Positions 11,903 through 64,000 are shown, counted from the stretch's first letter. The stretch is 64,000 nucleotides of DNA from Parcubacteria group bacterium (GCA_003104935.1 PQAE01000010.1:13768-77767), one strand, 5' to 3'. Program-made: numbers and translations. Notes: generated from the sequence alone by a model not told the origin.

Positions 11903-12454
11903 TTATAATTTGGTAATTTCCCTTAATTTACTCAGCGCCCGGTGCAAGAGGACACGCACGGCGCTTTTTTGCATATCAACGATCTGGGCGATGTCATCGA
12001 TGGACAAATCTTCTACATAACGCAGATAAATCACTTCTTGATATTCCGGTTTCAATTTTCTTAAATCCTGCAATAACTTTTCCAGATCCAGCGACCGATG
12101 AAAACTATGGCTGTGGTCAGCTGGGGCCTGTTCCAGCTCCTCCGGCAAAAACTCTAGAGGCAATTCCTGACGATTATTTTGCCGGTAATAATCTATCACG
12201 GTATTGCGGGCGATCCGGAAGACAAAGGACTGAAAATTTGCAATCTGTTTCTTATCCACCAGATGCTGCCAGGTTTTAAGAAATATATCCTGGGTCAGAT
12301 CTTCGGCCACTTCTTTGGCGGAAACCTTGATCAGAACATAGCGATAAATGCTTTTAACGTACTTGTCGTAGAAAAAAACAAAGGCGTCAGCATCACCAGA
12401 TCTAAGCCTTAAGAAAACTATCCTCTCTTGTAAACTACTTTTCAGACTTTTCAT
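11903..12454 (-). CDS. ECF-type sigma-70 family RNA polymerase sigma factor
   Basis: 183 aa; region-2 like YRYVLIKVSAKEVAEDLTQDIFLKTWQ and region-4 HTH SIDDIAQIVDMQKSAVRVLLHRALSKLRE. Confidence 0.8.
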   Translation of the reverse strand: MKSLKSSLQERIVFLRLRSGDADAFVFFYDKYVKSIYRYVLIKVSAKEVAEDLTQDIFLKTWQHLVDKKQIANFQSFVFRIARNTVIDYYRQNNRQELPLEFLPEELEQAPADHSHSFHRSLDLEKLLQDLRKLKPEYQEVIYLRYVEDLSIDDIAQIVDMQKSAVRVLLHRALSKLREITKL

Positions 12455-12713
12455 ATATATAGACGAAGAAACCGCCTAAATATTACACTTTTTACCGCTA
12501 ATTATATGCGCTAATATTAGCAAAAATTAAAGAGAATCAAGATTCCCTTTAATTAATTAGACATGAAGTGAACAAATTATAGCATTTTGATACACCTATG
12601 TAAAGACAAAAAACCGGAAAAAAGTTACTTTTTTAAGGTTTAGTGGTTTAGTCTGAACATAGAAAAAAATTAACTAAAATCACTTATACACAATAGCTAC
12701 TTATCCACATTTA

Positions 12714-12746: not shown

Positions 12747-13058
12747 ATGAATATTAATCTGGTTAAAAATATGGAAAACGTCATTCGCGTTTCAATTTCT
12801 GAGGCTGGCCGTTTATTTGGTGTTTCTACTAAGACTATCCGCCAAGCCATCAAAAATGAGGAGTTGCGATATATCGTGGTAAAAGGACGCTATAAGATCA
12901 ACTTTGCTTCTTTAGTAACCTGGTCGCAGAGATCCACTCGTAGGGCTAACCTGCTACGTCAGGACGGTATTGGCCAGTATGTGGATAACTGGAAAATATC
13001 AAACAAAAAATTTAGCCCTAGCTTTGAACTGATAAAAAACAAAAAAACCGCGGATTAG
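12747..13058 (+). CDS. small helix-turn-helix DNA-binding protein
   Basis: 103 aa; ISEAGRLFGVSTKTIRQAIKNEEL is an excisionase/MerR-like HTH. Divergent from the sigma gene and convergent with the HtrA-like gene. Confidence 0.45.
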   Translation: MNINLVKNMENVIRVSISEAGRLFGVSTKTIRQAIKNEELRYIVVKGRYKINFASLVTWSQRSTRRANLLRQDGIGQYVDNWKISNKKFSPSFELIKNKKTAD

Positions 13059-29866: not shown

Positions 29867-30199
29867 CTACATCTTAATTTCAACATCCACTCCGGCGGGC
29901 AAATTCAGACTCATCAAAGCATCCACCGTCTGCGGTGTAGGGTTCATGATATCGAGCAATCTCTTATGAACGCGCATTTCATATTGGTCGCGGGCTCCTT
30001 TGTGGACAAAAGTAGAACGGTTAACAGTAAATTTCTTTTTCTCTGTCGGCAAAGGTATGGGACCCATGATTTTGGCGCCAGTCCGATCAACGGTATCAAT
30101 AATAGTTTTAGTGGATTGATCAATGATCTTATGGTCATAAGCCCTGATCTTAATCCGGATGCGGGACTGCACTTCGTCTTTGACTTCTTTTTCTGGCAT
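29867..30199 (-). CDS. rpsJ: 30S ribosomal protein S10
   Basis: 110 aa; [37 protein letters not shown]. Confidence 0.9.
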
Positions 30200-30269
30200 G
30201 GATGGTAAATGAACTTGTTAATTTGCTTATTAAACCCCTGCGCCCACTCTGGACGCAGGGGAAAAATAT

Positions 30270-31457
30270 TTATTTAAGAATCTTGGTCACCGAACCGGCT
30301 CCGACAGTGCGTCCGCCTTCGCGGATAGCAAAACGGGACTGCTCTTCCAGAGCGACCGGGGCGATTAATTTGATGGTTAACTTGATAGTATCACCAGGCA
30401 TGACCATCTCCGTGCCCTCCGGCAAAATAACTTCGCCGGTAACATCGGTGGTGCGGATGTAAAACTGGGGTTTGTAGCCCTTGAAAAACGGGGTATGACG
30501 TCCGCCTTCCTCTTTACTCAAGATATAAACCTGAGCTTCGTATTCGGTATGTGGAGTAATACTGCCGGGCTTGGCCAAAACTTGGCCGCGCTCCACTTCA
30601 TCTTTCTTGGTGCCGCGTAGCAAAATACCAGCGTTATCACCGGCCATACCTTTGTCTAACTGTTTGTTAAACATTTCAATACCGGTAACCACGGTCTTAC
30701 TGGTCGGTCTCAGACCGACTAATTCCACGTCTTCGTTTAAGTTAATCACACCTCTTTCGATACGACCGGTCACGACCGTGCCGCGGCCTTCGATGGAGAA
30801 GATATCTTCGATTGGCATCAAAAACGGCTTGTCCGTGTCGCGCTTGGGTTCGGGAATATAGTCATCGATGGCTTTAACTAAATCTAAAATCGGTTGGGCG
30901 TCCGGTCCCTTGGGATCGGCCAAGGCCTTGAGGGCGGTGCCGCGGATAATGGGGATCTCGTCGCCGGGATATTCATATTTCTTTAACAAGTCGCGTATTT
31001 CCTCTTCCACCAGATTGACTAACTCCGGATCATCTACCTGATCCATCTTGTTTAAGAAAACAATAATATAGGGCACACCAACTTGGCGGGCTAACAATAT
31101 ATGTTCTCTGGTCTGGGGCATGGGGCCGTCAGCGGCGGAAACGACCAAAATCGCTCCGTCCATCTGGGCGGCACCGGTGATCATGTTTTTGACATAGTCA
31201 GCATGACCAGGACAGTCCACGTGAGCATAATGTCTCTTGTCGCTCTCATACTCAACATGAGCGGTGGCGATAGTAATACCGCGCTCGCGCTCTTCGGGAG
31301 CATTGTCAATCTGATCTACATCCTTGATCTGAGCTTTGTTGCCATGAGCGGCTAACACTTTTAGAATAGCGGCGGTCAAAGTAGTTTTACCGTGGTCAAC
31401 GTGACCGATAGTTCCTACGTTGATGTGCGGCTTTTCTCTGTTAAAAATTTCTGCCAT
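30270..31457 (-). CDS. tuf: elongation factor Tu
   Basis: 395 aa; [22 protein letters not shown]. Confidence 0.97.
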
Positions 31458-31576
31458 TTTTTTATTTAACTCCTATGATAGCACCCCTTCCGTGACCGCC
31501 TGAGCGGCAGTGGATGCGAGGATTTGTAATCCAGCTATCGATTATTTATGGATTAATTAATATTTAAAACACCAAG

Positions 31577-31605
31577 ATTATAGCAAACATCTTTATTTTT
31601 GGCAA
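31577..31605 (-). promoter_or_regulatory. promoter TTGCCA-N17-TATAAT for tuf
   Basis: Minus strand -35 at 31605-31600, -10 at 31582-31577; about 120-nt 5' UTR with SD GGAG before the tuf ATG. Confidence 0.55.
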
Positions 31606-31661
31606 GCCCTAAAGGCCAAGACTGAAACATTTTAATTTTTTATCTAATATTAGCTAAAAAA

Positions 31662-32045
31662 CTAATCTATTGGCTCCAGATAGTACTTTTCATCCACTGG
31701 CTCGTCCACCAGCTCCTCGGCTGGTTCGGAAAGAATACTAGGCGCCTCGGCACCGGTCACGGGTTCTTTTCTGACCTTATCGACCCGGAATTTGTCCAAA
31801 TCGTAGCCGGTCAAATCCGTGCCTTCGTCTTGAGAAGCCTTCCAAACCGCGATATCACGGTTGATTTTCTCCAACAATTGGTCCTCAGTCATATCTTTGA
31901 TCGGAGAAGACCTATGTAACAGGGCTTCATATTCCTTGACGCTCATGATCATATAGGGGTCATGAAATTCCGAAACTACTATAACCTTGTCCCCGGTACG
32001 ATGAGCTAGGTCTAGGACTTCATCGATTTTTTTGTAGTTTGCCAT
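31662..32045 (-). CDS. Phd/YefM-like antitoxin-fold protein with acidic C-terminal tail
   Basis: 127 aa. VIVVSEFHDPYMIMSVKEYEALL resembles Phd/YefM N-domain (PVIITRRGKPVAVLMSLEEYESL). No cognate toxin ORF adjacent. Confidence 0.35.
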   Translation of the reverse strand: MANYKKIDEVLDLAHRTGDKVIVVSEFHDPYMIMSVKEYEALLHRSSPIKDMTEDQLLEKINRDIAVWKASQDEGTDLTGYDLDKFRVDKVRKEPVTGAEAPSILSEPAEELVDEPVDEKYYLEPID

Positions 32046-32199
32046 ATTTTTTATCTGCCTATCGCTTATGGCTAATGGCTTATATAAATATAAAAATTTA
32101 CTATAAGCAATCGACTACAGGCCATAAGCCAATTAATAATTAGAGGTATTTTAAGCCAAAATATAGGCCTTGTCAATTAAAAACGTGCTGAACAAATAA

Positions 32200-32228
32200 T
32201 TGACAAGAGACTAAATATTTGATAAAAA
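32200..32228 (+). promoter_or_regulatory. promoter TTGACA-N17-TAAAAA with TG-extended -10, embedded in a 10-nt perfect inverted repeat (candidate operator)
   Basis: cttgtcaatt (32169-32178) and aattgacaag (32198-32207) flank/overlap the -35; downstream SD gagaggagg and ATG at 32262. Confidence 0.45.
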
Positions 32229-32261
32229 TAATCGTTTTATGTTCCATCTATGAGAGGAGGT

Positions 32262-32489
32262 ATGGTTGTGGCAAAATACCGCTATAGTGTCGAGGATTTT
32301 CTCGGCAATGTCCGCCACCGCACTCTGGAAGCGGACAGTGATGATGCTGCCCTACAGCAAATGAAACACAGGCAGGAGCAGGAAGTCAGGGGTATTTGGA
32401 GAAAACTGTTGTTCTTGGGATCTCCGAACATCGCTTACGACCTGGTCCGCATTGACCAGGAAGAAATCGTCACTCACCTCGTCCATTAA
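32262..32489 (+). CDS. hypothetical small protein (75 aa)
   Basis: Strong SD GAGAGGAGG 6 nt upstream of ATG at 32262 (ORF-track start 32250 lies inside the SD). Followed by intrinsic terminator. Confidence 0.35.
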   Translation: MVVAKYRYSVEDFLGNVRHRTLEADSDDAALQQMKHRQEQEVRGIWRKLLFLGSPNIAYDLVRIDQEEIVTHLVH

Positions 32490-32514
32490 ATCCCCTTCTC
32501 AGGGGAAAAACAAG

Positions 32515-32552
32515 ATGAGGAGTTCCCTGCGGAACTCCTTTTCTGTTTTTTT
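32515..32552 (+). terminator. intrinsic terminator
   Basis: gaggagttccctgcggaactcctt hairpin followed by ttctgttttttt. Confidence 0.65.
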
Positions 32553-32857
32553 ATTTATACTTACCCAATAAAATAAATAGAATTATCTATTAACATTGAC
32601 AAATATATAAATATATGCTATACTTATATATTCTAATAAAAAGCACCTAAAAAAGCTATAAAACGCAGATATGGAGGGGCAGAAAAGGCCATATTTTCTT
32701 GATTTTATTGGGTCCCTCTCGATTCACTCGAGGCAGGTCGCTCAATGTCTTCATGAAGGTGTGGCTGGACTATGCAACGGCTTTTAGCCGCTTTTAGTCC
32801 TCTCGCCTCCAGATCCGTGCTTTATAGAAAACGTCCTTCAAAACAAGGCAGAGAATC

Positions 32858-33097
32858 ATGATACTATGGATTATGGTTATTGCCCAATTAGTAGTCTGGG
32901 CTTGGTTCTCTTTGCGTGGCGGAAAGCTAAGCGACCGGAAATTTCTTATCTTTACCGCCGGAATGCTCCTGGGACAGCTGGGAGCCGGAATCGAGACTTA
33001 TCAGTCTCACGCCTGGAGAGCTTTTATAGTCCAAATCTACTTCTTTCTCTTCACCGCCATCGGAGGCCTGCAACGTTTCCGACAAATGAAGAATTGA
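32858..33097 (+). CDS. small 2-TM membrane protein (79 aa)
   Basis: Two hydrophobic helices; stop 1 nt before next ORF start (translationally coupled). Confidence 0.3.
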   Translation: MILWIMVIAQLVVWAWFSLRGGKLSDRKFLIFTAGMLLGQLGAGIETYQSHAWRAFIVQIYFFLFTAIGGLQRFRQMKN

Positions 33098-33098
33098 G

Positions 33099-33323
33099 GT
33101 GGCAACCATGACCACGATTATGTCCGAACGGATACTGCACAGCAGAAAGAGATTCCCAATAGTGGATTACTATTTGGGATATGACATCGTGGCCTGGAAG
33201 CAAGGAAGCTTGTACTATGCCAAGCCAGTGGGCTGGAAAGGCCCAATCCTTTCCGCTCCGACCAAACCTCTGCTCCGGAGAAGAATCCACGAGTGGTGGT
33301 TTGAAATCCAGCTACGTAATTAA
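33099..33323 (+). CDS. hypothetical small basic protein (74 aa), GTG start
   Basis: GTG at 33099 (alternative ATG at 33108) preceded by gaggtgg; downstream 10-bp hairpin ccctgaaatc/gatttcaggg. Confidence 0.3.
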   Translation: MATMTTIMSERILHSRKRFPIVDYYLGYDIVAWKQGSLYYAKPVGWKGPILSAPTKPLLRRRIHEWWFEIQLRN

Positions 33324-33439
33324 GTTCCCGCCAACATCTGCCCCCGTCACCCTGAAATCTAAAAGATTTCAGGGCCCGCCCCAGCATATTTTGCAAAAAA
33401 TATATTGAGGCGGGAAAATAAAAAATTCCCAGAATTCTC

Positions 33440-33475
33440 CGCTAATCAAAAATTCCACAGCCTCTGCTGTGGAAT
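33440..33475. terminator. bidirectional intrinsic terminator
   Basis: aaaaattccacagc-ctct-gctgtggaatttttgtt (A-run, hairpin, T-run). Confidence 0.55.
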
Positions 33476-33511
33476 TTTTGTTAAAACTATTGTGGATAAA
33501 CCCTAACTACT

Positions 33512-33540
33512 TGACAAATTAAAAATATGCTATAATATAC
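33512..33540 (+). promoter_or_regulatory. near-consensus promoter TTGACA-N17-TAATAT (alternative TATAAT with 14-nt spacer)
   Basis: TTGACA 33512-33517; TATAAT 33532-33537; TAATAT 33535-33540. Confidence 0.5.
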
Positions 33541-33612
33541 TAGTGATGATGTTTGTGAGGGTTTAGGCCCTCCCACGGTTAAAAGATATTCAAACCGTAG
33601 ACAAATATCATC
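33541..33612 (+). ncRNA. candidate small structured RNA: 72-nt three-way junction (14-bp closing stem, two internal hairpins), family unassigned
   Basis: gtgatgatgtttgt pairs with acaaatatcatcac (14 bp, one G-U). Internal hairpins gaggg-tttagg-ccctc and cggtt-aaaagatattca-aaccg. No ORF. Immediately downstream of the promoter. Confidence 0.35.
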
Positions 33613-33621
33613 ACAAAAAAA

Positions 33622-34107
33622 CTACTGATTTTCCAAGTCACCCTCGTAAAAAACATGTTTCACTCGACCCAATAAAGGGTCATTTTTTGTTTTCCAAAAA
33701 GGTATAACACTCCAGAAATATGGCACTCCGTTATTAACCTCCTTTATAATAACCTTGATTCTGACCTCATTAACAATGGCGACAAATCCATAATACCTAA
33801 CTATCACCATTTTTTTCTCCCATCGAGAATTAGTATTTTGTCTCTCTAAACTATTCTTTTGATTAAATTCCTGAACAGTGTGCGATCTTTCTATAACAGT
33901 TTTGGTTAGCTTCAAAAATTTTAATCTTAAATACTGATCGGAAAGTGACCTGGCCTTATTCCATTCTTTAAACTTAATATGGTCTAACCCCTTAGAATTA
34001 AAATTAACCTTTCTCCCTAGATAAGGGCAATGGACTTCTCTGATAGTGCCATAAAATTTTTCGGCCTCGTCCTTCACTCGATCTAATTTTTCCTGTAGTT
34101 TGTCCAT
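33622..34107 (-). CDS. hypothetical protein (161 aa), AT-rich codon usage
   Basis: Lys/Asn-rich; no recognisable motif; located in the inserted island. Confidence 0.35.
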   Translation of the reverse strand: MDKLQEKLDRVKDEAEKFYGTIREVHCPYLGRKVNFNSKGLDHIKFKEWNKARSLSDQYLRLKFLKLTKTVIERSHTVQEFNQKNSLERQNTNSRWEKKMVIVRYYGFVAIVNEVRIKVIIKEVNNGVPYFWSVIPFWKTKNDPLLGRVKHVFYEGDLENQ

Positions 34108-34157
34108 AAATGGTAGTGCGAGTGAATTTTAAGGTGCTAATGTGTTTTTGTCAATCA

Positions 34158-34190
34158 GTAAAAAAGCCTCACATCAACTGATATGAGGCT
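34158..34190 (-). terminator. intrinsic terminator after fusA
   Basis: Minus strand: agcctcatatcagttgatgtgaggct hairpin followed by ttttttac. Confidence 0.6.
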
Positions 34191-34209
34191 AACAATAAAC
34201 AGAATTAAT

Positions 34210-36306
34210 TTAATTTTTCTTTTTAATTTCTTCAGCGATATTAGTCGGCACCTGGGAATATTTCTGGAATTCCATGCTGTAGCTGGCTCGGCCCTGCGTC
34301 ATAGAGCGCAAGGTCGTGGCATAACCAAACATCTCGCCCAAAGGCACTTCGGCATCGATAACTTTGGCACCGGCCCGATCGGACATATTGTGTACCTGGC
34401 CACGCTTGGAGTTGAGATCGCCGATCACATCACCCATATATTGCTCGGGAGTGACTACCTCTACTTTCATCACCGGCTCCAAGATAATTGGCTTGGCGCG
34501 TTTGAACGCTTCTTTAAAAGCCATAGATCCGGCCACTTTAAAAGCCGCTTCTGAAGAATCCACTTCATGATAGGAACCGTCATAGACCACAGCTTTGACG
34601 TCTACCACCGGATAACCGGCGATGACGCCGTTGTCCATAGCTTCTTTGATACCCTTCTCTATAGCCGGGATATATTCGCGGGGGATCAGACCGCCCTTGA
34701 TCTCATCTTCAAATTCAAAACCCGCTCCCCGCTCCTGCGGTTCCAGACGAATCCAACAATGGCCGTATTGTCCGCGACCGCCGGATTGCTTGATATATTT
34801 TCCTTCGGCTTCGGCCACGGCCAAAATAGTTTCTTTGTAGGCGACTTGCGGAGCGCCGACATTGGCTTCGACTTGAAATTCGCGTTTCATACGATCCACG
34901 ATGATATCCAGGTGTAGTTCACCCATGCCGCCGATAATAGTCTGATTGGTTTCTTCATCGGTGCGTACGGTAAAGGTCGGGTCTTCTTCGGCCAATTTAG
35001 ACAAAGCCATACCCATTTTTTCCTGGTCAGCTTTGGTTTTAGGTTCTACGGCTACGTGAATAACCGGATCCGGGAAATCCATACTCTCTAAGACTACCGG
35101 GCGTTTTTCATCCGCTAAAGTATTGCCGGTAGTTGTATCTTTCAGACCGACCACGGCTACGATGTCGCCGGTAAATATCTCCTGCACTTCCTCCCGGGAA
35201 TTAGCATGCATCCGGAGGATGCGGCCGATGCGCTCTCTTTTTTCGCTATTACAATTTTCCACATAAGAGCCAGAACCCAAAGTGCCGGAATAGACCCGGA
35301 TAAAAGTCAGCCGGCCGACATAGGGGTCTGTAGCCACTTTAAAAGCCAGAGCTACAAAAGGATCTTTATCTTCTGCTTTCAATATTACTTTACTGTCTTC
35401 ATTGCGCGGCTCGTGGCCTTCTACTTCCGGCATGTCCAGCGGTGAAGGCAAATAGGCCGTGACTGCATCCAGCAAAAACTGTACTCCTTTATTTTTGAGT
35501 GCTGAACCGCAAAAAACCGGCACGATTTTTCCGCTGATCACGGCCTGACGCATAACTTGTTTCAAATCCACAATTTCCGGTTCTTGGCCGGCCAGATATT
35601 TTTCCATCAATGTTTCGTCGTGTTCCACGATAGCTTCGATCAGCTTGCCACGATATTCCTCTACTTTATCTTTTAAGTCCGCCGGTATTTCGCGCTTTTC
35701 GTATTTTTTGCCTTCTTCATCCAGATAATACCAGGCTTCTCTTTCCAATAAATTTATAATTCCGGTAAATGTTTCCGCCGCGCCAATAGGCAACTGCATA
35801 GGGTGGGCATTTTTTGTCAGCCGCTCATGAATAGTTCTCAGGTCAAAATAAAAATCTGCACCCATGCGATCCATCTTATTAACAAAGGCTAAGCGCGGTA
35901 CATTGTATTTATCGGCTTGGCGCCAGACAGTCTCGGACTGCGGTTCCACACCGGCTACACCGTCAAAAACCACTACGCCCCCGTCCAGCACACGCAAAGA
36001 GCGTTCTACTTCTACGGTAAAATCAACGTGCCCGGGAGTATCGATAATATTGATATTTGCCGTGCCACCCCCTAACCACTCCGGTATCGGCCAAAAGCAA
36101 GTAGTAGCCGCGGAGGTAATAGTGATACCGCGTTCCTTTTCCTGCTCCATCCAGTCCATCTCGGCCTGACCCTCATGCACTTCGCCGATCTTGTGCTTTT
36201 TCCCGGTATAAAAAAGAATACGCTCGCTGACCGTAGTCTTGCCGGCGTCGATATGGGCGATGATGCCGATATTTCTAGTTTTTTCTAGTGGTGTCTGTCG
36301 GGGCAT
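34210..36306 (-). CDS. fusA: elongation factor G
   Basis: 698 aa; [17 protein letters not shown], typical EF-G domains. Confidence 0.97.
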
Positions 36307-52075: not shown

Positions 52076-52843
52076 TTAAGCTTGGGGAGCGAAAAAAATC
52101 TGACAATTATTTCTGATGGCCGGAGCAACTATTTTTTCACAAATACTCTTATCCTTATCTACAATAGCCTGCCGATACCAGATAGAATCCTGACAGCGTG
52201 TCTGACCGTCAGAACCGACTGCTACTATCAGGGGATCTTCACAAACTTTTATATCATCCTGCTGACCAATAAAGGCAAATATACACTTATTCCTGATTTC
52301 TGCTTCAGTCAAACTACGACATTCGTCCAGACTCTGACCGCTAAACTCTACTTGGGTTAAATCCACGCTAAGTTGACAAGACTCTCTCTGTTCTTGAGCG
52401 CCGATCTTATCGCAAATCTGCCGATCCTTATCAATAGAAGCAAAATACCTATAACAGTCGTCTTTCTTTTGAATGTATTGACAAAGATCTACTTTTTTAA
52501 CAGTTGTCACTTGATTTAATTCCAGATTTCCAAAACATTCTTTCTGCCGCAGAACATCCTGATAACTCTCGCAGGTTTTTTGCATTTTTAAAAAAATGAC
52601 ATAAGTCTCGGCTACTTCCAGTATTTTTTTATCGGCTATAGTTAGGCCGTCAATATAATTTAATACATTAGTCGCGGTAGATACTGTGCCCGAGTCAATT
52701 CCGGGCAGACCGGGAATAAATGGTTTGATTATTTTTTTAAAAGTTAAAAACCAGATCAGTCCACTAACCAATATTAATCCTATAAATGTCAATAAAATAA
52801 TTTTTTTTCTGCTTATCATATATGTATTGCTTACCAATGACAA
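52076..52843 (-). CDS. membrane-anchored Cys-rich repeat protein
   Basis: 255 aa; N-terminal TM; about five approx. 25-aa units each with a Cys pair (CQYIQKKDDCYRYF, ICDKIGAQEQRESCQL, CRSLTEAEIRNKCIFAF, ICEKIVAPAIRNNCQIFF). Confidence 0.4.
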   Translation of the reverse strand: MSLVSNTYMISRKKIILLTFIGLILVSGLIWFLTFKKIIKPFIPGLPGIDSGTVSTATNVLNYIDGLTIADKKILEVAETYVIFLKMQKTCESYQDVLRQKECFGNLELNQVTTVKKVDLCQYIQKKDDCYRYFASIDKDRQICDKIGAQEQRESCQLSVDLTQVEFSGQSLDECRSLTEAEIRNKCIFAFIGQQDDIKVCEDPLIVAVGSDGQTRCQDSIWYRQAIVDKDKSICEKIVAPAIRNNCQIFFAPQA

Positions 52844-55800
52844 TAATTATAAGTACCACCCACTGTCCCCTGGTTAAATAATATTGAGGCATTAGGCGAA
52901 GCCCCGGCGTTAAACCTGACACTAAAGGGCAGATTATTGGGCGGATCCACAGCATCGCACATGCCTCCGGTATAAAGCGATCTGGTATCCAGGTGGATAT
53001 TGTTTGTCCAACCCGGCATAACGGCCGGCAAGCTGATGCTAGTCCAGCCCGAACCGCTATTTACTTCCACCGAGGTCAGATTGCTGGCTGATGAGAAAAC
53101 ACCGACCGGCGGAGCCAATAACCATCCGGTGGCCACGCTAGAATCTTCACGCACGCTAAACTTACGGGCTTTGGAACGGTCAATCCATTTACAATTGGCT
53201 CCGCAACCCGGTTGGCCGTCGCATTCTTCGGTATTTAGTGGCTGATCCAACCAGGCCGGGTTTGGAGTCCAATATAGCGGAGCGGTTTTAACACCCTGTT
53301 GAGCGCCGCAATCAACTACCCCGTTTCCGCAAGTACCGGCCGGCGTATAACAAAAGTTGGTATCAGCGCCACAAACGCAATTATTAGAAGAAACCGCATT
53401 AAGGACACCCTCATATCTAGTCCAGATATTGCCGCCAGTAGTGCCGAAGTGGTAAAAATCTAAAGTTACTACTTTGACACCCATGGCTTTGAGATCATCT
53501 ATCTTGGCCGGCTCAATTCCAGAGTTCCATTCTCCGATATATGTATTATCCAAACCGGGTAGTTTTTTACCACTATCTAAAACAACTAACATTAAATTAT
53601 CATACAGGGGATTAGCTTGAGTAAATAAAACTTTAGCATAACTTAACATATCAGAGGGATCTGAATAATCGCCGGTAGCCGGATCATTGATATAAGCGCC
53701 GTGATAATTATTAGCCCAACCTACCATCGGAGCTATGGCGGCGCCGATATTTAAATACTGGGAAAAAGAGTAATACAAATTATCATTAACAATTGAGAAG
53801 TCGGAGCCCAGTACTCCACACCCCCAGGTACAGGCTCCGCCCATAGTGGGATCGCCGGCACCATAGTGTATCATAGCCACATCCATGGTAGGGTCAGCGT
53901 TATGCATATTGAGTAATATAGTGGATAAAGAAAATTGCATAGCTTGAATCATGGTCTTATCGTTTGGCCGGCCATAGTGATCATCGCTAGATATCAAAGG
54001 ATTATTCAAATTAGTCTGAGTACAGTCATTGGCAAAGGGCGGATTCCAGACATCGCCCACTCCCACATTGCCGTCAGCCACACAGGTCTGTCCCTGAATA
54101 CTGTTGGCCACAGCAATGATGGCAAAGGTAGTGCCGGCGGAACCGGAGTCAATCCAGGCATTAGTCACCACATCTCCGCTTACTCTGCACTGCGGCAAAT
54201 TAATCGTGCTATTCTGGCCATTGTTCAAACTAACGTAGTTGCCGGTATTTGGCACTATCTGACGAACTTCCAATCCATTTATGCCCCAATTACAGTTGCG
54301 CAACGGACAGTAAGGATCTGTATCTAGTCGTAAATCTAAAAATCCATCATTAACATTAGCGATCATCTCAGTAGATTTCGTTACATTCAATCCCACCTGA
54401 GCATTAACAGTGCCTATGGTAATGCCACTTTCCTCTACATCCATTTTAGTGGGGAAAGTGGTAACGTCTTCGGTATCACCACGATAAACAGTAACTCCGT
54501 AAGCCCCGTTGGCTGGAACCTTAATTTTAAAGATAGGATAACCACGTGGATCCCCGGCGCCTAGGGCTCCCCCTCTTCTCAAATAGTCACGAGTCATAGT
54601 AGTGCCGACGGTACGAGTACGGCCGCCTATACCAAAAGTATCTGGATTAACTGCCGGATCAAAACCCCAACCTTGAGCAGCATTATAAATAACATTTATG
54701 CCAGGGATGACATTGCCGTGAATCACATTAGTCCAACCCGGTGTGAAGTAAGCACTATTATTATCAATATTAAAATCAAAATTCTGATACCAGTAATTGC
54801 CAAAGGTTACATTAGCGGTACTAACGACCCCGGAGGGATAATTATTAACATCAGCTACACAAGTATAGGTGCAAGTCGGACTGCAATCGGCAGTGCCATC
54901 ACATTGTTCGTTATGGATCGCCTGGACAATACCGTCGCCGCACCAGCCGCCAATGCTGACCGTACACTTATCGGCAGCGGCCGTAGAACATTCATATTGA
55001 TTAGCATTATTTATCGCCGTGGCCGGAGTCCTGACCCAAGAAGTGCCGTCGCAATATTCCGTGCCGTTTTTTATGTTATCACCACAGTAGCCGCCCGTGT
55101 CTTTGCAGGCCAGGGCGGTTGTTACTGCTCCGCAAGCATATTGAAAAGCGATGGTCGAGACTTGTGGAGTAGGCCCAACATAACCGTTCGGATCGCATTC
55201 TTCGCCATAGCCCATTTCGGCAACAGAATTGCCACAATATTTGTTTTCCCACTTGCAGGCCGTCGGAGTAGCCAAGGCGCCACAGACATACTGGTTAGCA
55301 ATGGTAGAATTTTGCGGAGTTACTCCCGGTCGCGGGTTGGCTGGCGGTTCACAATCTTCGCCGGCCTCCAAAATACCATTATTACAAACTACATTAACCG
55401 GAATTTCCGCACCCGGACAATCACGGACACAAACCGCACAACTAATCGGTGCGCCGCTGGGACAACTCCAGCCGGCCAGACCGGCCGCATTATCACACTC
55501 TTCCTGAGCGCCATTGACCGTATTATCACCACACCAGCCGCCAATGACTTGTTTGCAGGCATCGGCGTTAGGCGCGGCTACACAACCGTACTGATGAGTA
55601 GCATCCATGGCTTGAGCCGGAGCTGGGGCTACAAAACCGTTGGGATCGCAAGTTTCTCCAAAAGCGGCGTCCGGCGGCTGGCCGCTACCGCAATATCCTC
55701 CGCTGGTGGGCTGACAAGCATTGGCATTAGGAGCAGTGCCACACTGATAACGGTGATTGGCGTCGGAATCCTTGGGTGCCGGAGCCACATAAGTGCCGCT

Positions 55801-58800
55801 TTCACAGATTTCTCCGTGATCGGACCCATGTCCAGGTAAAGCTTGGCCGTCATTGATAATATTGTCGCCGCAATAACCCTCTATAAAGGTACAAGCATTG
55901 GGCGCTATATTTTTACATTTATATTGATGGGCAAGTGAAGAATCTTTTGGCGCCACGAGCGCGGGATAACTGGCCCAATCACAATCTTCACCGGGCTCAG
56001 GAATACCGTTGCCGCAAACTGCATTGGTGGGCAGACCGGGCGGGTTGCAGCGTCGCGTGCAATCATTATTACACAATATTGGCTGGCCGTCTGTACAGAC
56101 CCAGCCCTGGAAATCCGAACCATTAGGATCGCATTGTTCATTATTCAAATTTTGGGTAGTACCATCACCGCACCAGCCGCCGGTATTGGGCAGACAGGCG
56201 TTACTGCATTTGTATTGTTTGGCCTCTCGGGAAACAATTGGCGGCGGCGAGATATAAAGTGCCGGTTCACAAGTTTCATAAGCTGGTTGAAGAATACCGT
56301 CTTGACAATGTCCTCCGGCGATATTTGTCTGACAACTATGGCATTCATATTGACGGCTATCGCTAGACTGAGCCGGCGACGGCGGAGTATATACTCCATC
56401 GCAATTTTCACCAAATCCAGATTGTTGCACTCCGTCACCGCAATAGGGCTGACCAGTGGTTGTACAAACATTAGAACAAGTATAAGGATGAGTTATGGGT
56501 GACTGAGCCGGCGGCAAAGGTGTCCAGTCTGTGGGATCACAGGGCTCGCCGGCGGCTTGTTCCCATAGATTATTCATACAGACGAAATTTGAAGGCATGC
56601 CTACATCACAAGTTCTTTGACATTGGGCATTACAACTGATCACTCCGCCGGCAGTACAGCTCATATTTACCAATCCGTCCGGATTACCGCTGTAGTCGCA
56701 CTCCTCTACGCCCTGATCCCAGTGGCCATCGCCACAGGCCGAAGCCAAGATATTGCCGCTAGCCGGACAAACCGCCTGGCACCCGGTACAAGCAACTGCG
56801 CCGTTATTGGGACAACTATAATAAACATTGTTAAAGTTATTGCCTTCGCAACGCTCATAATTTGGCTGGATGGTATTGTCGCCACAATATCCTCCGCAAG
56901 CCGCCGCATCCAAAGGCGGATCTGGTACAAACCACCGGCACTGCAATAAATTACCGTTACTATCACGATAGCCCGGCGGATAACAACCGATGCGATGTTC
57001 GTTCCACCAATTTTGGTTTCCCAAGGCAGTGTCGCATGCAAACTCCGTATAATTGCCGTCGCATTGCTCACCTGGATCCATTATGTGATTACCACACGAA
57101 TTTGTTGGTGGTTCGCCGAAATGTCCCATGAATCCGCAAAATCCCGGAGTAAGGCGCGAAACCAGATGTTTGGCACCATAAGGATCTTCTATATTTTCCA
57201 CACCGCGCTGGCCGGAAACTAATATCAGATTACCTGCCCAAAAACCAGGTTGTAAAACATCATATTCAAAATTGTCCGCGATCCTATAATCGGTGCTCAA
57301 TAAGTTTTTGTAAAAATAATTATAAGTGTAAAGCGGGGTATTGTCAGAACATTTAAATTTTTGATTAATCTCATTCCAACAGGTATTGGGATCATATTTG
57401 GCGTCCGGCGGATTGGCGCAACCGGCAAACTTGTTGATCGGATCTTGAGGTAAGGACGTGCCCAAGGCCTCCTCTAAGGTCCCGTCCCAGGAAAGCGGCC
57501 AACTGCTGTTAGATATACCTCTAACATAACTACCGGAGCTGAGCGTCGGATAGGAATTAACGCAGGCACCTTGACAATCACTGTCTTGAAGACACGATTG
57601 AGCAGTGGGATCATTACAAATCTTGTTATTGCGGCCATAATCCACCATAAGATTTTGAATTTCCAGCATATGACCCAGGCGCTTCATATCGCGACGCAGT
57701 TTCAATCCCTGTGACTGACATGGACCCACATAATCGCGCCCTTCGTTTATCAGACACTCGCTATCTTCAGTACAATTAACAGAATTATCTAAGGAACAGA
57801 TATTATTATTATTTTGCGTCAGATTGGTATTAAAACGGATATTATCTATGAGCTGGTTGTAGATGTCTATAGTGGCCTGGCGCGCTCCGATATTATGGGC
57901 GATAACATATATATTAGTGTAGAGATCTCCGACGCCGGCATTAAGAACATTGGTACCGGCAATATAAGTGGTACCGCCTATGGTCAGAGCTTCATAACCA
58001 TCTACCTCGGTCACGGCACCGGCGTTGCCGGAATTGGGAGCAATACGATTATACCAATCGGTAATCGACATTTGAGTGGGATTGGTCATGACCCTGATAC
58101 CGATGATATCCTGAGTGGTGAGATTGGTGTTAAAATTGGAAACGGTAATAATGCCGGTAAAAACATATTGCGTAGGATAAGCCGCCCCGACCCGATAATT
58201 ATAAGTATCGCCGGTATGGATGCCGTTAGGATCAACATCTATAAATTCAAAAACCCCGGGCCCAAGATTAGCTCTGTCAGTCCAATTCAGATCAGTTGGT
58301 AGTTTTCTTTGCACTACATAACCCAAGGTAGAAACACCGTTCCAGGTAAGCTTTAACTGGGCACTCGGTCCAGTGCCGACCAAGCTATAGGCAAAATTTG
58401 TCGGCGCCGGTCCCGGACCCGCCGCACCCTCTACTCTTTCGGGTCTAAACAGACTGCTTATTTTTTTCCACCAGGAAGTCTGCTGACTCTGATCACCGGT
58501 ATTTCTGGCCAAAGTGCCCAGAGCCAAAGGCGCGGCATTTTGATTATTTAGCGCCGTAGCCGGCGGGTCAACAAAGAAAATATTTTCCTGCAATATATTC
58601 GGATCAGACGTATTTGGCGGTTGCCGCCTAAATGACCAGAAATAAGGCAACTCCGGTAATACCGGCGAGGTCGCAGTCTGAGCCATACAATAAAAAGTTT
58701 CAAAGTGATAGTCGGTTGCCGCTAGCCCGTCCTGCCAGGGAGTCCAGGTCGGCCCGACCGGTACTGGCCAGGGTCGTGCGCACATAAACATGTTTATTCT

Positions 58801-61800
58801 GGCTGAGCCATTGCCCGCACCAACCTGTGTTCCCTCCACATGCACGGCCAAGGTCTCATTGCCGTTAAAGGTGGAACCGGCCGACGGGCCGGCTAAAACA
58901 GTATCATTATTAGCGGCGCCAGTAATAGCCAGATTAGCCGGATTGCTGGAGGTCCAGGCAATCGTATCAATAAAAGCCGGATCAAGCTCTGTGCCACTGA
59001 CATCATAAGGCGTAACCTTATACTGGTGCTGATTTCCGGCAGTAGCAATATCTATATCTCCCGGACAATCATTGAAAGAGCAGGTAAATCTGTCAGTACT
59101 GGGTTCAACCAAAGTAAAACTGATCTGACAAATATTGCTACCGGTTTTAAAATTCCAGCCATAGCCGTCAATCGGACCGCCGTCAAGATTGATTTGTGGC
59201 AAGGCTCCCAGCCGGAAAATACCGCCCAGTTCTTTGCTCCGGATTGTACCCTTTACCAACACGGCATAATTTGTATCACCCCTCATCATGTTGTTGGGAT
59301 GAAAAGTCACCTTGCTATCCAAATCCTGGTGCGGTGCTTCCATTGCCATCAAAGGCGGCAGATCCAAATCTTGCACACTAAATGTTCCCGGAAATTCACA
59401 CCACCATTTTCCGGGAGTAACCAGATTATCCGGTATGCAACCAGCCGCGAAATTATCGGCCTGTTCATAAACTACCGTGGAGTTCCGGACACTGTCCGCT
59501 GTGACCGGCGAAGAAAATTCTATTGTCACCGCGGCATTCATGCAGGCGCCCGGTCCGATCGGAGGGCTGAATCTCTGGATGGAAAAATCAAAACTGCCGG
59601 GTAAAGCCACCTCAAAGTCGCTTTCAGCAGAACGATTTAAAGCATTTTGGGTAATAATACCCCTTACTTTGGTTCGGCCGACACCAGTAGATTTTACTGG
59701 ATTGACATCCAAATTAACATTAGGAACAAAAACTACTGCCACATTATCAGATTGCCAACTATAACTACAGTTCGTACAGTGGATCTGCTGGATACCGCAA
59801 TTCAAGTTTTGATTATTTGTCGCTATTAATGAGTAGGGTACGTCTTCCATTAACATCGTGGATAGATAACTAGCCGGTGAAATCATCGCTCCCGTAACCG
59901 AGCAAGCAGGCGGCTGAGCGATAGTAAATTCCCAAGATTTGTCTGCTCCCAATTGAGCGCCATCTTCGCTTGATACGATTCCACTCACTGTGGCTTTGTA
60001 ACGGTGCCCCAAAACGATTTTGCCGGGGAAGGGAAATATAAGTACGTGCTCATCCCCCATGGTGGTCGCAGTAATGTTTGGTCCTGGAACAGTTAAATCT
60101 TCTAACTTAAATCTTACTTGATTATCTGGCCAAATTGTATCGGTAAACAACAACCGCTGATTAAACTGCACATAAATATCCGCATTTGAGCAGGCCCCGT
60201 CGCATTGCGGACCAAAACCAAGTATTTGCAAAGGTTTGACAGTAATCTTGCATTGTTTAGTACCGGCCAGGGGCACAAAAGTATTATTCTGGTCAGAAGC
60301 GGTAACTTTTATTTCTAGATTATTCGGATCAGTTTTACTCCCTCCGGTCAACACACTGGATCCTCTTGGGGTGAAGTTATTATTGGCCGGCAGGACAGTG
60401 TTTGCGGGCGGGTTTAGCGAAGGATCAATAGTCTTAACCCAAGTCCAATTATAATTACCACCGCAGATATTACAACTGTCATCGGTCAGCCAGGCGCTAA
60501 GATTTGTAGTCCGGCCTTTAAGGGTAGTACAGTTATTCGGACCCATATATACTTGCGTCGGCACACAGGCATCGCTAGCAACTCGGGTCTTAAAATGCCA
60601 GGCTGGAGCTGGTTCTCCCGGCGGGTTTGGCCAGACGTCGCCACCCACTGCGGCGTGGAACTTATTGCCGCCGCCCAGATCCACCCGATACCAAGTATCC
60701 GGCTCTAAACCGGGATTGGGGCTAAACGCCATACCTTCTTCGTCAGTATTGTTATTCACTATGTCCGCGGGGTCAAAGGGATCGTGAGGTACGGAGCCGC
60801 CGGCACAAGCGGCATTATCAAAAGGATTATGAGCCGCGCCGCCCCCGGGATTACATTTTATGACTTGAAAATTATTTTCATCAAGGAGATCAATATCGGC
60901 CACATCTCTGGTAAAATGAATCACCACCTTTGTACCCACATAAGAATCTAAAGAACTGTAACCGGATTCACCGTCCGGCCAGGGCGTGGGCGTCTGATAG
61001 GACAAGCCCGGCTCACCACAATAATTATACCTCAGACGAAACGGCTCAGGTTCGGTGCGGAAAGTCCAGGGATACTCGCATTGATTAGGCACGGGTTGAC
61101 AACTATTAGCGCAATATTTCCCGGCATTACCCTCACAGCAATGGTCTAAGCCGGCATTTTGTACGCACCACTGATCATTGGGGCAATCACCTACTCTGAA
61201 ATTAATCGGGTTGCTTTCCTTATTAGTACTGTTATTGACCACCACCGTAGCGCCAGTCTGCGCTCCCAGGGGCACTTTGGCCTCGCCGATCTGCTGTCCG
61301 TTCCACCAGGAAAATGGAGGGACCGCTAATTTGTTTTCATAAAATTTAACTGACGGCTGGATATTGCCGAAATTATCGCCGTAAAAATTTACTTCCGTAT
61401 TGATCGGTCCGTTATCCGGGACTATGGCACACAATCCGGGAATCAGCGCATTAGCATTATTAACGGTAAAGTTATAGGGCTGGCTAACGGCGTTATCCGG
61501 AGCCCTGATCACCCGCACTTGCTGTAGATTATTGACGCCGGCGGGAATCTTGACGATGATGCGGTCGCTACGCCAGATACTATCTCGGCATTGGGGCGGA
61601 AATGTAAAATCTCCATTTACGGCGTTAAAGGTCACCCGGCCCTGTTGATTGCCAAAACGCGCACCCATAATGGTCACATACTGGCCCGGCGGCGGATCAT
61701 CGTCCGGTAGGATACTGTTAATTACCGGTAATCCCCCGCCAACCGTCTGCACAGTAAAGGGCAGTGAGTTGCTTTTTTCATTACTGCCGTTGTCTTTTAC

Positions 61801-63426: not shown

Positions 63427-63436
63427 TTTATTTTTA

Positions 63437-64000
63437 TTATGAACCTTGGCAAAAATTTCCGGCGCAGGGCCCGTCATCGCAACGACAACTGGCGTCGGCC
63501 GCTTGGCATATACAAGGAAACCAACAATTTTGCAGATTATCTTTGATGCCGGCCGTCATCAGCGGATGATAGTCGGTTAGTGGCTTAAAACGGTCATGGT
63601 GGATTAATACTGTCTTGCCGTCAGTATCCAGGCTTGTCCAAAAATTTAATGGTACTGCCGGATCCTCAACCAAATCAATATTAGGACTCTTGATTGAGCT
63701 GGATAATAAATTTTTACTAAACTCCACTTTTACTGCCTCCGTCAAAGAAGCGCCATTAGTCGGGTCCATCTTGGACACAACCGGGGCATTTAGGTCTACA
63801 GAATTAGTGGTATTAAACAACCATTCATAGTTATCGCCCGGGGTGCCGTCATCGTTGCCGTCCAGTTTATTGCCGGCCATGTCCCGAATCACCGCCCCTT
63901 TAACCGTACCGTCAATCTGCTGAGACTGAGGCAGGCAAAAGACATCGCCGCCGCAGGAGTTTTGTCCGCAAAGCAGATCGGTGATAAATTCTACGGTCCG
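63437..64000 (-). CDS. C-terminal part of another large surface protein (bacterial Ig-like domain, Cys-rich C-terminus), partial
   Basis: Frame open to window end; ...VIRDMAGNKLDGNDDGTPGDNYEWLF... (Ig-like 'DxAGN' signature) ... CICQAADASCRCDDGPCAGNFCQGS*; stop 8 nt before the giant gene start. Confidence 0.45.
   Translation of the reverse strand, partial: RTVEFITDLLCGQNSCGGDVFCLPQSQQIDGTVKGAVIRDMAGNKLDGNDDGTPGDNYEWLFNTTNSVDLNAPVVSKMDPTNGASLTEAVKVEFSKNLLSSSIKSPNIDLVEDPAVPLNFWTSLDTDGKTVLIHHDRFKPLTDYHPLMTAGIKDNLQNCWFPCICQAADASCRCDDGPCAGNFCQGS

Follow-up and report, generated by a model that had tools for sequence, protein, structure and literature searches.

Several described systems share features with the locus considered here. 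Type III toxin-antitoxin (TA) systems (ToxIN, CptIN and TenpIN) combine a protein of ~160 amino acids (aa) with a highly structured, separately conserved small RNA, which consists of tandem 34-36-nt repeats and lies upstream in the toxin operon. In type I TA systems with a cis-antisense RNA, such as SymE/SymR, a convergent and constitutively promoted RNA can pair with a stretch of the partner mRNA. The type II antitoxins of the Phd/YefM family are of a different kind, and their N-terminal domains are dimeric DNA binders. Finally, defence genes have been found embedded in restriction-modification (RM) operons, namely PrrC (PMC3874165), which resides in EcoprrI, TgvAB (PMC11411939) and the 'guilt by embedding' candidates of Payne et al. 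(bioRxiv 10.1101/2024.01.29.577857). Elements that recall each of these systems lie within a 64,000-nt stretch of DNA from a Parcubacteria group bacterium (GCA_003104935.1, PQAE01000010.1:13768-77767; this whole stretch is called the window), in the interval (31458-34209) between fusA and tuf, the genes for elongation factors EF-G and EF-Tu. They are a 161-aa protein, p161, with a structured small RNA beside it, and a 127-aa protein of Phd/YefM-like fold, p127, encoded next to tuf.

The str/S10 cluster of the window, whose proteins carry NCBI locus tags of the form C3F02_037xx, lies on the minus strand and reads rpsL, rpsG, fusA, the 2,752-bp interval, tuf, rpsJ and further genes. The interval is best explained in three layers: a conserved core that includes p127, a variable slot between fusA and p127, and cargo within that slot, part of which is a cassette in which the small RNA would restrain p161 as an effector. 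The probability of this three-layer account can be put at roughly 0.6.

The gene for p161 (33622-34107, minus strand) is the protein half of the cassette, and the ~100 nt of DNA past its stop codon are 75-87% identical among 80 metagenomic loci and others. This exceeds the identity expected from the p161 coding region, whose products are ~55% identical, and speaks for a conserved RNA element there. In the window the element is a three-way-junction RNA of ~75 nt (33543-33613, plus strand), convergent to p161, with a minimum free energy of -32 kcal/mol and z = -6.6 for the segment 33535-33625 relative to shuffled controls. An alignment of 58 distinct copies gives a stem P1 of at least 8 pairs, a stem P2 of 6 pairs with a UUCG/UUUG-type loop, and a stem P3 of 6 pairs with a variable and sometimes extended loop, and the nucleotides of the junction are invariant (UUGUGAG...CUCCC.CGGUU...AAACCG.AGAC). 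In these copies 99.1% of the cells are paired, and there are 102 compensatory double changes compared with 30±9 in column shuffles, a value of 102 being reached in none of 500 shuffles. Pairing falls to 36-48% in controls in which the partners were shifted by 1-3 columns.

The strand on which the RNA is selected can be read from the same alignment, in which 110 G-U cells but only 3 A-C cells occur, so that it is the strand opposite to p161. The promoter of the small RNA (33511-33538, plus strand) was found by the promoter scan as TTGACA-16-TAATAT, and a TG-n-TATAAT pattern is also visible by eye. An equivalent sigma-70 promoter, with at least 9 of 12 consensus positions and often TG-extended, is present in 45 of 57 homologous loci and in most of them ends 7-10 nt before P1, from which the transcript would start at P1. 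A covariance model built for the RNA matches the window once (33541-33622, 80.8 bits, E = 7e-19). Over 751 kb of other loci it matches only directly past p161 homologs, always on the opposite strand, and it finds nothing in 47 control loci of the str operon; a decayed copy (19.7 bits) is present in one locus, L123 (individual loci of the comparative set are designated by L numbers). The RNA is in fact the only universal neighbour of p161. A second conserved protein partner was sought, but none is universal, and the ORFs (open reading frames) of ~150-180 aa found downstream do not form one family. The RNA accompanies essentially every p161 homolog, and the two are very probably a functional pair.

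Several arrangements could end the small RNA. A hairpin followed by a T-run lies downstream in 26 of the 58 copies, and in 8 of 58 loci the RNA and the ORF have a bidirectional terminator between them. In many others a hairpin lies antisense to the codons of KKxFHEGDLE, a near-invariant C-terminal motif of p161 that is predicted to be disordered, and on the opposite strand the DNA of this motif folds as a terminator hairpin (TCTCCTTCGTGGAGA followed by a T-run). Such a hairpin is found ~21-27 nt past the RNA element in L097, L100, L104, L106, L107, L118, L119, L124, L134 and L135, and the candidate terminator in the window is a terminator-like site at 33666-33690 (plus strand), antisense within the 3' end of p161. 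The motif-coding hairpin would terminate the small RNA, and a dual constraint on the same bases is possible. Focused Rfam scans of the small RNA (E ≤ 10) returned only chance-level matches far under the gathering scores. Resemblances of the junction to retrons, hammerheads and purine riboswitches were considered and dropped, as a reverse transcriptase gene is lacking, the sequences at the junction differ from theirs and Rfam gives no match.

The p161 protein is rich in Lys and Trp, and its gene is transcribed from a TTGACA-17-TAAAAT promoter (34126-34154, minus strand; 11 of 12 consensus positions) that leaves a 5' untranslated region (UTR) of only ~11-18 nt. More than 235 homologs of 160-164 aa share ~55% identity and 30 residues that never vary, many of them Lys, Arg, Trp or Tyr; where the source is named, they come mostly from metagenome-assembled genomes (MAGs) of Patescibacteria. 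The nearest described domain is LPD3 (PF18798), a domain of unknown function from the polyvalent proteins of phages and conjugative elements (Iyer et al. 2017, PMC5512222). The match of p161 to it is marginal, at 27.1 bits for a cut-off of 27.0, and joins residues 9-130 to profile positions 4-113 of 114; several p161 homologs carry a precomputed LPD3 annotation. The difference is that p161 is a stand-alone 161-aa protein encoded in Patescibacteria chromosomes, with no phage or plasmid matches. An AlphaFold2 model (mean predicted local distance difference test, pLDDT, of 80) has an N-terminal helix, a helical segment and a four-stranded antiparallel sheet, predicting a soluble alpha+beta protein, and a Foldseek search of this model against the PDB gave nothing with E < 0.5, nor did PDB sequence profiles yield a match for the p161 family.

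The closest relative of the window that was found, L003 (fusA 92% and tuf 98.6% identical), also carries the cassette. Between these two genomes p161 has 73% amino-acid identity, with a non-synonymous divergence (dN) of 0.158 and a saturated synonymous divergence (dS); the corresponding values for fusA are a dS of 1.42 and a dN/dS of 0.035. The ratio itself is not computable for p161, p127 and p74 (the last a small protein of the same interval), since dS is saturated. A dN of 0.158 alongside saturated dS argues that solo p161 is under purifying selection outside RM operons.

The cassette moves between genomic contexts and is strongly associated with RM operons. RM genes adjoin it in at least 20 of 68 distinct loci, many of the 68 being short contigs, and an embedded cassette lies 2-25 nt past the gene for the methylase or the specificity subunit, with R or S following it. 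The commonest Pfam families among 142 flanking proteins are N6_Mtase (9), Eco57I (9), N6_N4_Mtase (7), Peptidase_S24 (7) and HSDR_N_2 (7), followed by LexA_DNA_bind (6), AAA (5), Methylase_S (5) and ResIII (5). Three RM architectures hold the cassette, namely type I, a type with a methyltransferase (MTase) and HsdS, and MTase with ResIII. The gene order is hsdM-hsdS-p161-small RNA-hsdR in L106 and MTase-p161-small RNA-ResIII in L138 and L145. A LexA-like protein, an MTase, p161, the small RNA and, further on, HsdS follow one another in 8-11 loci. In the LexA-headed operon, which holds the cassette in L092, L095, L099, L111, L124, L135, L162 and L175, the genes are for a LexA-like S24 peptidase, a protein of ~650 aa with HSDR_N_2, N6_Mtase and Eco57I matches, p161, the small RNA, a small ORF and HsdS. 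Other settings also occur: the cassette adjoins an integrase with HTH_17 and AbiV in L173, sits within an island of NYN, RhuM, Fic and RM genes in L004 and L005, and lies between housekeeping genes in L170 and in the window. The cassettes of the window and of L003 are solo and intact, and no RM gene is adjacent in the window.

In the proposed mechanism p161 would be an effector that binds or cleaves RNA, and its basic, aromatic-rich composition suggests that it is likely an RNA binder. The small RNA would restrain it by direct binding at the conserved junction, in the manner of type III systems, and in most copies may also do so by antisense pairing with the 3' region of p161, in the manner of type I systems. 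The invariance of the junction suggests a site of protein recognition. The pair would then constitute an addiction or defence module, which would explain both the intact persistence of solo copies and the frequent embedding in RM operons. A restrained effector is favoured because RM-embedded genes are often latent toxins or defence effectors. This step is held more tentatively than the pairing of protein and RNA, and a toxin/RNA-antitoxin or defence mechanism is given somewhat less than even odds.

Comparison with the described systems brings out both sides of the proposal. The cassette resembles type III TA systems in the size of its protein, in its highly structured and separately conserved small RNA, in a mobile or defence-related context, and in an RNA conserved beyond the needs of base pairing, suggesting recognition by a protein. 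It differs from them in that its RNA forms one three-way junction in place of tandem repeats, of which none were found, that this RNA is downstream and convergent with a promoter of its own, and that p161 lacks similarity to ToxN or AbiQ, families of this type giving no match in Pfam, PADLOC or the PDB. The likeness to type I systems lies in the convergent, promoter-driven RNA, which would overlap the 3' end of the p161 ORF in most copies. Unlike the toxins of those systems, p161 is large, Lys-rich and predicted to be soluble; the overlap would involve its 3' end instead of the ribosome-binding site, a terminator abolishes any overlap in eight loci, and the conserved part of the RNA is outside the ORF. 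Many p161 members share with the RM-embedded defence genes a position between hsdM/hsdS and hsdR, or between their counterparts, but p161 is unrelated to PrrC or GmrSD in sequence or fold, it has an RNA partner, and the window copy lies outside any RM operon.

Several points weigh against the proposed mechanism. The cassette fits no described TA type, having one structured RNA instead of repeats and a soluble 161-aa protein instead of a small hydrophobic peptide. No recognisable nuclease fold or motif was found in p161 by Foldseek against the PDB or by PDB sequence profiles, and there is no PADLOC match. The evidence for the small RNA consists of its promoter, structure and covariation. Furthermore, the constant position of the cassette past a methylase or specificity gene and ahead of R or S would fit a regulator of RM expression equally well.

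In its developed form, this last idea holds that p161 and the small RNA are a timing device for RM operons and that the window copy is a stranded remnant. The convergent RNA and its promoter would damp read-through into R or S, or their translation, and p161, co-translated with the methylase, would relieve the block after modification has taken place. Besides the short gaps of 2-25 nt and the placement directly past M or S, the idea draws on L106, where hsdR starts ~50 nt past the RNA element and little room is left for an independent promoter, on the occurrence of the cassette in three different RM architectures, and on the LexA-like regulator at the head of 8 such operons. However, most loci of the family, including those of the window, L003 and L170, have no adjacent RM genes (many being short contigs), and the solo copies, still under purifying selection, have lost neither ORF nor promoter nor RNA. 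A timing device is also hard to reconcile with p161 itself, in which neither a helix-turn-helix (HTH) family nor any other known regulator domain was detected, and with the bidirectional terminator between RNA and ORF in 8 loci. The RM controller is unlikely, and an RNA-restrained effector is preferred.

It is much less probable still that the structured element merely serves the p161 mRNA as a 3' UTR or terminator, or insulates two convergent genes from each other. The element does lie immediately past the p161 stop codon, and its reverse complement folds too, with 89.8% of cells paired. Against this, the excess of G-U over A-C cells (110 versus 3) favours the opposite strand, a conserved sigma-70 promoter points into the element at a fixed distance, the invariance of the junction nucleotides goes further than a terminator would require, and no T-run follows the element in the sense of the gene.

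The conserved core of the interval (31458-32200) holds p127 and, between it and tuf, a palindrome, the tuf promoter and a tuf leader stem-loop. The p127 gene (31662-32045, minus strand) is transcribed from a TTGACA-17-TAAAAT promoter found by the promoter scan (32148-32176, minus strand); the region around this promoter (32084-32183) is kept in L003. A collection of 5.8 billion proteins yielded 52 close homologs, and a genome scan confirmed 153 related loci, of which 80 were kept. All 77 loci with downstream sequence have tuf as the next gene after the p127 homolog, in the same orientation and typically 150-260 nt away. These loci belong to Parcu-, Komeili-, Buchanan-, Falkow-, Kuenen-, Jackson- and Nomurabacteria. 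Since fusA is within 300 nt upstream of the p127 homolog in 33 of the 65 loci that contain fusA, the ancestral order was fusA-p127-tuf. TA loci typically have a patchy, mobile distribution, but the position of p127 is fixed across several Patescibacteria lineages. There is little doubt that p127 is a vertically inherited resident of the str operon, core rather than cargo, and that the interval is a composite.

The p127 family is built of a Phd/YefM-fold N-domain, an invariant helix (LL.KINRDIA.WK in the family alignment; INRDIAVWKASQ in the window), a variable acidic linker and an invariant C-terminal KYY(I/L)EP, which in p127 continues as KYY(I/L)EP(V/I)D. Weak matches to PhdYeFM (PF02604) occur in 29 of 30 family members, with a best family E-value of 6e-6. 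The AlphaFold2 model of p127 (pLDDT 67) matches the N-domains of Phd and YefM in Foldseek with a root-mean-square deviation of 1.4-1.8 Å over 40 residues and a probability of 0.97; a PDB sequence-profile search with the family gave no match. The likeness to the Phd/YefM type II antitoxins (PDB 3HS2, 4ZM2 and 2A6Q) thus comprises the fold of the N-terminal ~45 residues, a layout in which the folded N-domain leads into a helix and then a disordered C-terminal tail, and a palindromic DNA site nearby. Yet p127 reaches only 16.1 bits against the PF02604 gathering threshold of 29.8, every family member is below that threshold, the KYYIEPVD motif at the C-terminus is conserved, and the palindrome lies upstream of the tuf promoter and not within the promoter of p127. 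Nor is there a toxin gene: no adjacent co-transcribed gene for a Doc, YoeB or RelE-like protein was found, the downstream gene being tuf in 77 of 77 loci across many Patescibacteria orders. The upstream and divergent neighbours differ from genome to genome, arguing that p127 has no conserved toxin-like partner. The one candidate for a conserved divergent partner, a weak six-member family of 124-171-aa proteins found in some slots and not in the window, was rejected. The earlier note's suggestion of a Phd-like antitoxin that is either orphaned or served by a non-canonical toxin is therefore replaced by a lineage-wide fixed neighbour of tuf, antitoxin-like in fold and failing the tests that define a Phd/YefM antitoxin.

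What p127 does may be connected with the control elements of tuf. Between its stop codon and the tuf promoter lies a palindrome, TCTAATATTAGC (31643-31654, reading on both strands), with the consensus GCTAATATTAGC. With up to two mismatches allowed, 30 of 48 loci have the consensus, and the spacing to the tuf -35 hexamer downstream of it is 48-50 nt in every case. The tuf promoter itself (31577-31605, minus strand) is a TG-extended TTGCCA-17-TATAAT that agrees with the sigma-70 consensus at 11 of 12 positions, and 32 of 48 loci share its pattern TTGCCAAAA...TGCTATAAT. The tuf 5' UTR forms a stem-loop (31477-31539, minus strand) shortly before the Shine-Dalgarno sequence; in 24 sequences it has 11 pairs, 6 of them with compensatory changes. 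Its outer stem is GAUAGC/GCUAUC, its internal loop UGGAUYACAAA is invariant, and the covarying pairs are in the inner stem; nothing in Rfam matches it, and a role as a lineage-specific cis-regulator of EF-Tu is possible. Because Phd/YefM N-domains bind DNA as dimers, the most economical inference is that a p127 dimer would bind the palindrome at its fixed distance from the tuf promoter and modulate tuf transcription. That p127 regulates tuf is possible, at a little under even odds. Against it stands the absence of the palindrome from the more distant half of the p127-bearing genomes.

A second exact copy of GCTAATATTAGC lies elsewhere in the window (12510-12521), 56 nt upstream of the start codon of an extracytoplasmic function (ECF) sigma-factor gene (11903-12454, minus strand) and downstream of a promoter-like TTTACA-17-TATAAT. 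An exact 12-mer would not be expected by chance in 64 kb, and the palindrome may therefore mark a small regulon. Close by, on the opposite strand between the ECF sigma gene and a gene for a PDZ-domain protein, a 103-aa ORF (12747-13058, plus strand) contains GRLFGVSTKTIRQAIKNEEL and looks like an HTH protein of the excisionase/MerR kind.

The truly variable slot is the segment between the fusA terminator and the p127 promoter, that is from fusA to p127 (~32046-34209), and it is prone to recombination. The gap between the two genes ranges from 36 to 4,402 nt among the 65 loci and exceeds 600 nt in 31 of them, and about half of the related genomes hold unrelated cargo in it. This cargo includes valyl-tRNA synthetase, an aminotransferase, a histidine kinase, RhuM, Fic, DUF559, a patatin and a deaminase, the larger part consisting of ORFs without a Pfam match. 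The weakly related family of 124-171-aa proteins mentioned above, also without a Pfam match, recurs in the slot, often divergent from p127 (L006 7367-7810; L019 3699-4151; L020 5210-5584; L039 5294-5809; L177 820-1726). In L003 the order is fusA, hydrolase, p160, p74 homolog, an insertion sequence (rve), p127 and tuf, indicating that the insert of the window at ~32046-34209 is itself a mosaic. No homologs of p161, p79a, p79tm or p74 (the last three being small ORFs of the cargo) were found among the 80 related p127 loci of the str operon. The interval is not one module but holds at least three independent units with different phylogenetic distributions, and its cargo in the window falls into three: the cassette, the p74 unit and p79a.

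One of these units comprises p74 and its leader. The p74 ORF (33099-33323, plus strand) encodes 74 aa, or probably 71 aa from the ATG at 33108, which follows a GAGGTG Shine-Dalgarno sequence, and belongs to a small Trp-rich family of 12 representative clusters with the motif YLG...P.GW.G...LRR.IWRWW. Homologs occupy the same slot in the same orientation in L003, L177 and L179/L180; in the slot of L179 the p74 homolog occurs without p161, a STAS protein being present instead. A TTGACA-17-TATACT promoter with TG (32596-32624) drives a structured leader of ~190 nt, the unit extending over 32596-32823 (plus strand), and z is -4.9 relative to shuffled controls for 32630-32860, the second of the two promoter-driven folded RNAs of the interval. 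Promoter and leader are common to the window, L003 (5232-5447) and L177 (1841-2030), the outer stem being invariant; 8 of 56 pairs covary among the three sequences. Two leader segments that pair together, UGGAGGGGCAGAAAAAGCC and CCUCUCGCCUCCAGAUCC, show 100% conservation. A focused Rfam scan of the leader returned only chance-level matches far under the gathering scores.

Between the leader and p74 the window has an extra segment of ~250 nt with p79tm (32858-33097, plus strand), a predicted small membrane ORF of 79 aa with only sub-threshold Pfam matches; among the fetched loci, with which alone it was compared, the segment occurs only in this genome. In L003 and L177 p79tm is missing and the leader abuts the p74 homolog. 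The remaining ORF, p79a, runs to 32489 on the plus strand and is 79 aa long from 32250 or 75 aa from the ATG at 32262 (p75), with a promoter at 32200-32229 and a GAGGAGG Shine-Dalgarno sequence; the 5.8 billion proteins held no homolog but itself. The p74 unit with its leader is therefore lineage-restricted, semi-conserved in close relatives and interrupted here by p79tm, and p79a is an orphan.

The boundaries of the interval are fusA (34210-36306, minus strand), a 698-aa ORF whose EF-G domains were assigned by Pfam on an identical Logan contig, and tuf (30270-31457, minus strand), a 395-aa ORF with 75-92% identity to the tuf of related loci. Behind fusA there is an intrinsic terminator with an 11-bp stem, a 4-nt loop and a T-run (34165-34190, minus strand). 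The terminator scan placed a bidirectional terminator 3' of p79a (32517-32540, both strands), and another divides the p161 unit from the p74 unit (33447-33480, both strands); its two 15-bp arms match perfectly around a loop of 4 nt, and A and T runs lie on either side. With the six near-consensus promoters of p161, p127, p79a, the p74 unit, the small RNA and tuf, the interval holds 17 promoter-like sites (7.5±3.2 in shuffles) and 8 terminator-like sites (2.9±1.6 in shuffles). An independent assembly of the same organism, Logan contig SRR5381729_2393 (L001/L002), ends 300 bp into tuf, a break that fits strain-level or repeat ambiguity at a highly conserved gene. Far from the interval, the window also contains a single very large ORF of 3,548 aa (52831-63477, minus strand).

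The earlier note had taken the whole 2.7 kb for an AT-rich accessory insertion, a single addiction, defence or phage-derived island in which the antitoxin-like protein is joined by the 75-aa protein or a membrane protein as toxin. Much of its description holds. The five small ORFs, the promoters, the terminators and the structured RNAs are all present, none of the five proteins has a recognisable housekeeping function, and at 40.3% GC compared with 45.6% for the window the interval has the lowest GC of all 2.75-kb windows there. Two parts account for the dip, p161 (34.8%) and the intergenic DNA (28-38%); the other four ORFs, at 47-50%, resemble the flanking genes. The low-GC p161 gene is found elsewhere in RM and mobile contexts, and its partnership with a structured RNA had been missed. 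Comparison of the fusA-tuf junction in relatives likewise supports an insertion in part, as the presence of inserted DNA, its length and its cargo vary, but p127 is always there upstream of tuf and has to be subtracted from it. As a single island the interval is very improbable. The Phd/YefM fold of the N-domain, the diverging promoters of p127 and p79a and the low GC speak for it. However, p127 stays upstream of tuf whatever lies on its other side, p79a has no homologs, and p79tm is missing in the nearest relatives.

An origin from phages or plasmids is likewise unsupported. Neither p161 nor the core motif of the RNA has a match in IMG/VR, and p161 has none in tblastn searches of GenBank phages and PLSDB plasmids. 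Presence/absence polymorphism at a fixed chromosomal site, as expected of a genomic island, was found, but the interval contains no integrase, the tRNA/tmRNA scan of the entire window was empty, and convincing flanking repeats are absent. Two direct repeats, D1 (31621-31653) and D2 (34199-34244), were considered as att-like sites and dropped, being weak, AT-rich matches of 20-24 nt with 75-80% identity. Rfam 15 covariance models gave no match at E ≤ 1 in 30000-36000, and on the five ORFs Pfam, NCBIfam, PHROGs and PADLOC gave nothing beyond the weak PhdYeFM match, the borderline LPD3 match and the sub-threshold matches of p79tm. The converse idea, that all five ORFs are ordinary conserved core genes, is hardly credible, since it suits p127 and perhaps p74, which is in the same slot in four related assemblies, but is refuted for p161, p79a and p79tm by their absence from 80 related str-operon loci, p161 lying moreover at many unrelated genomic positions and p79a being an orphan.

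The Patescibacteria (candidate phyla radiation, CPR) are uncultivated organisms with tiny genomes, and little is known of their regulation and defence. In this group the 'universally adjacent' fusA-tuf junction is a cargo slot, which helps in annotating MAGs and in spotting accessory genes in them. EF-Tu is among the most abundant cell proteins, and an antitoxin-fold protein fixed by tuf, together with a palindrome at fixed distance and a leader hairpin, suggests that its production is under lineage-specific control. The cassette, undescribed until now and widespread in the Patescibacteria, adds a new RNA family, strongly supported by covariation and tied to an obligate protein partner. It occurs in dozens of metagenomes, frequently within RM operons, and is a candidate for a new RNA-controlled mechanism of defence or addiction, or for a new way of timing restriction. 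The most far-reaching reading is rather less likely than not to be right: p161 and its RNA may represent a new class of protein-RNA conflict module of the Patescibacteria, in which a structured and separately transcribed RNA would neutralise or license a small effector aimed at RNA and the pair would serve RM operons as a further line of defence, analogous to PrrC but controlled by RNA, and, independently, p127 may be a domesticated antitoxin-fold regulator or partner of EF-Tu expression across a large part of the CPR.

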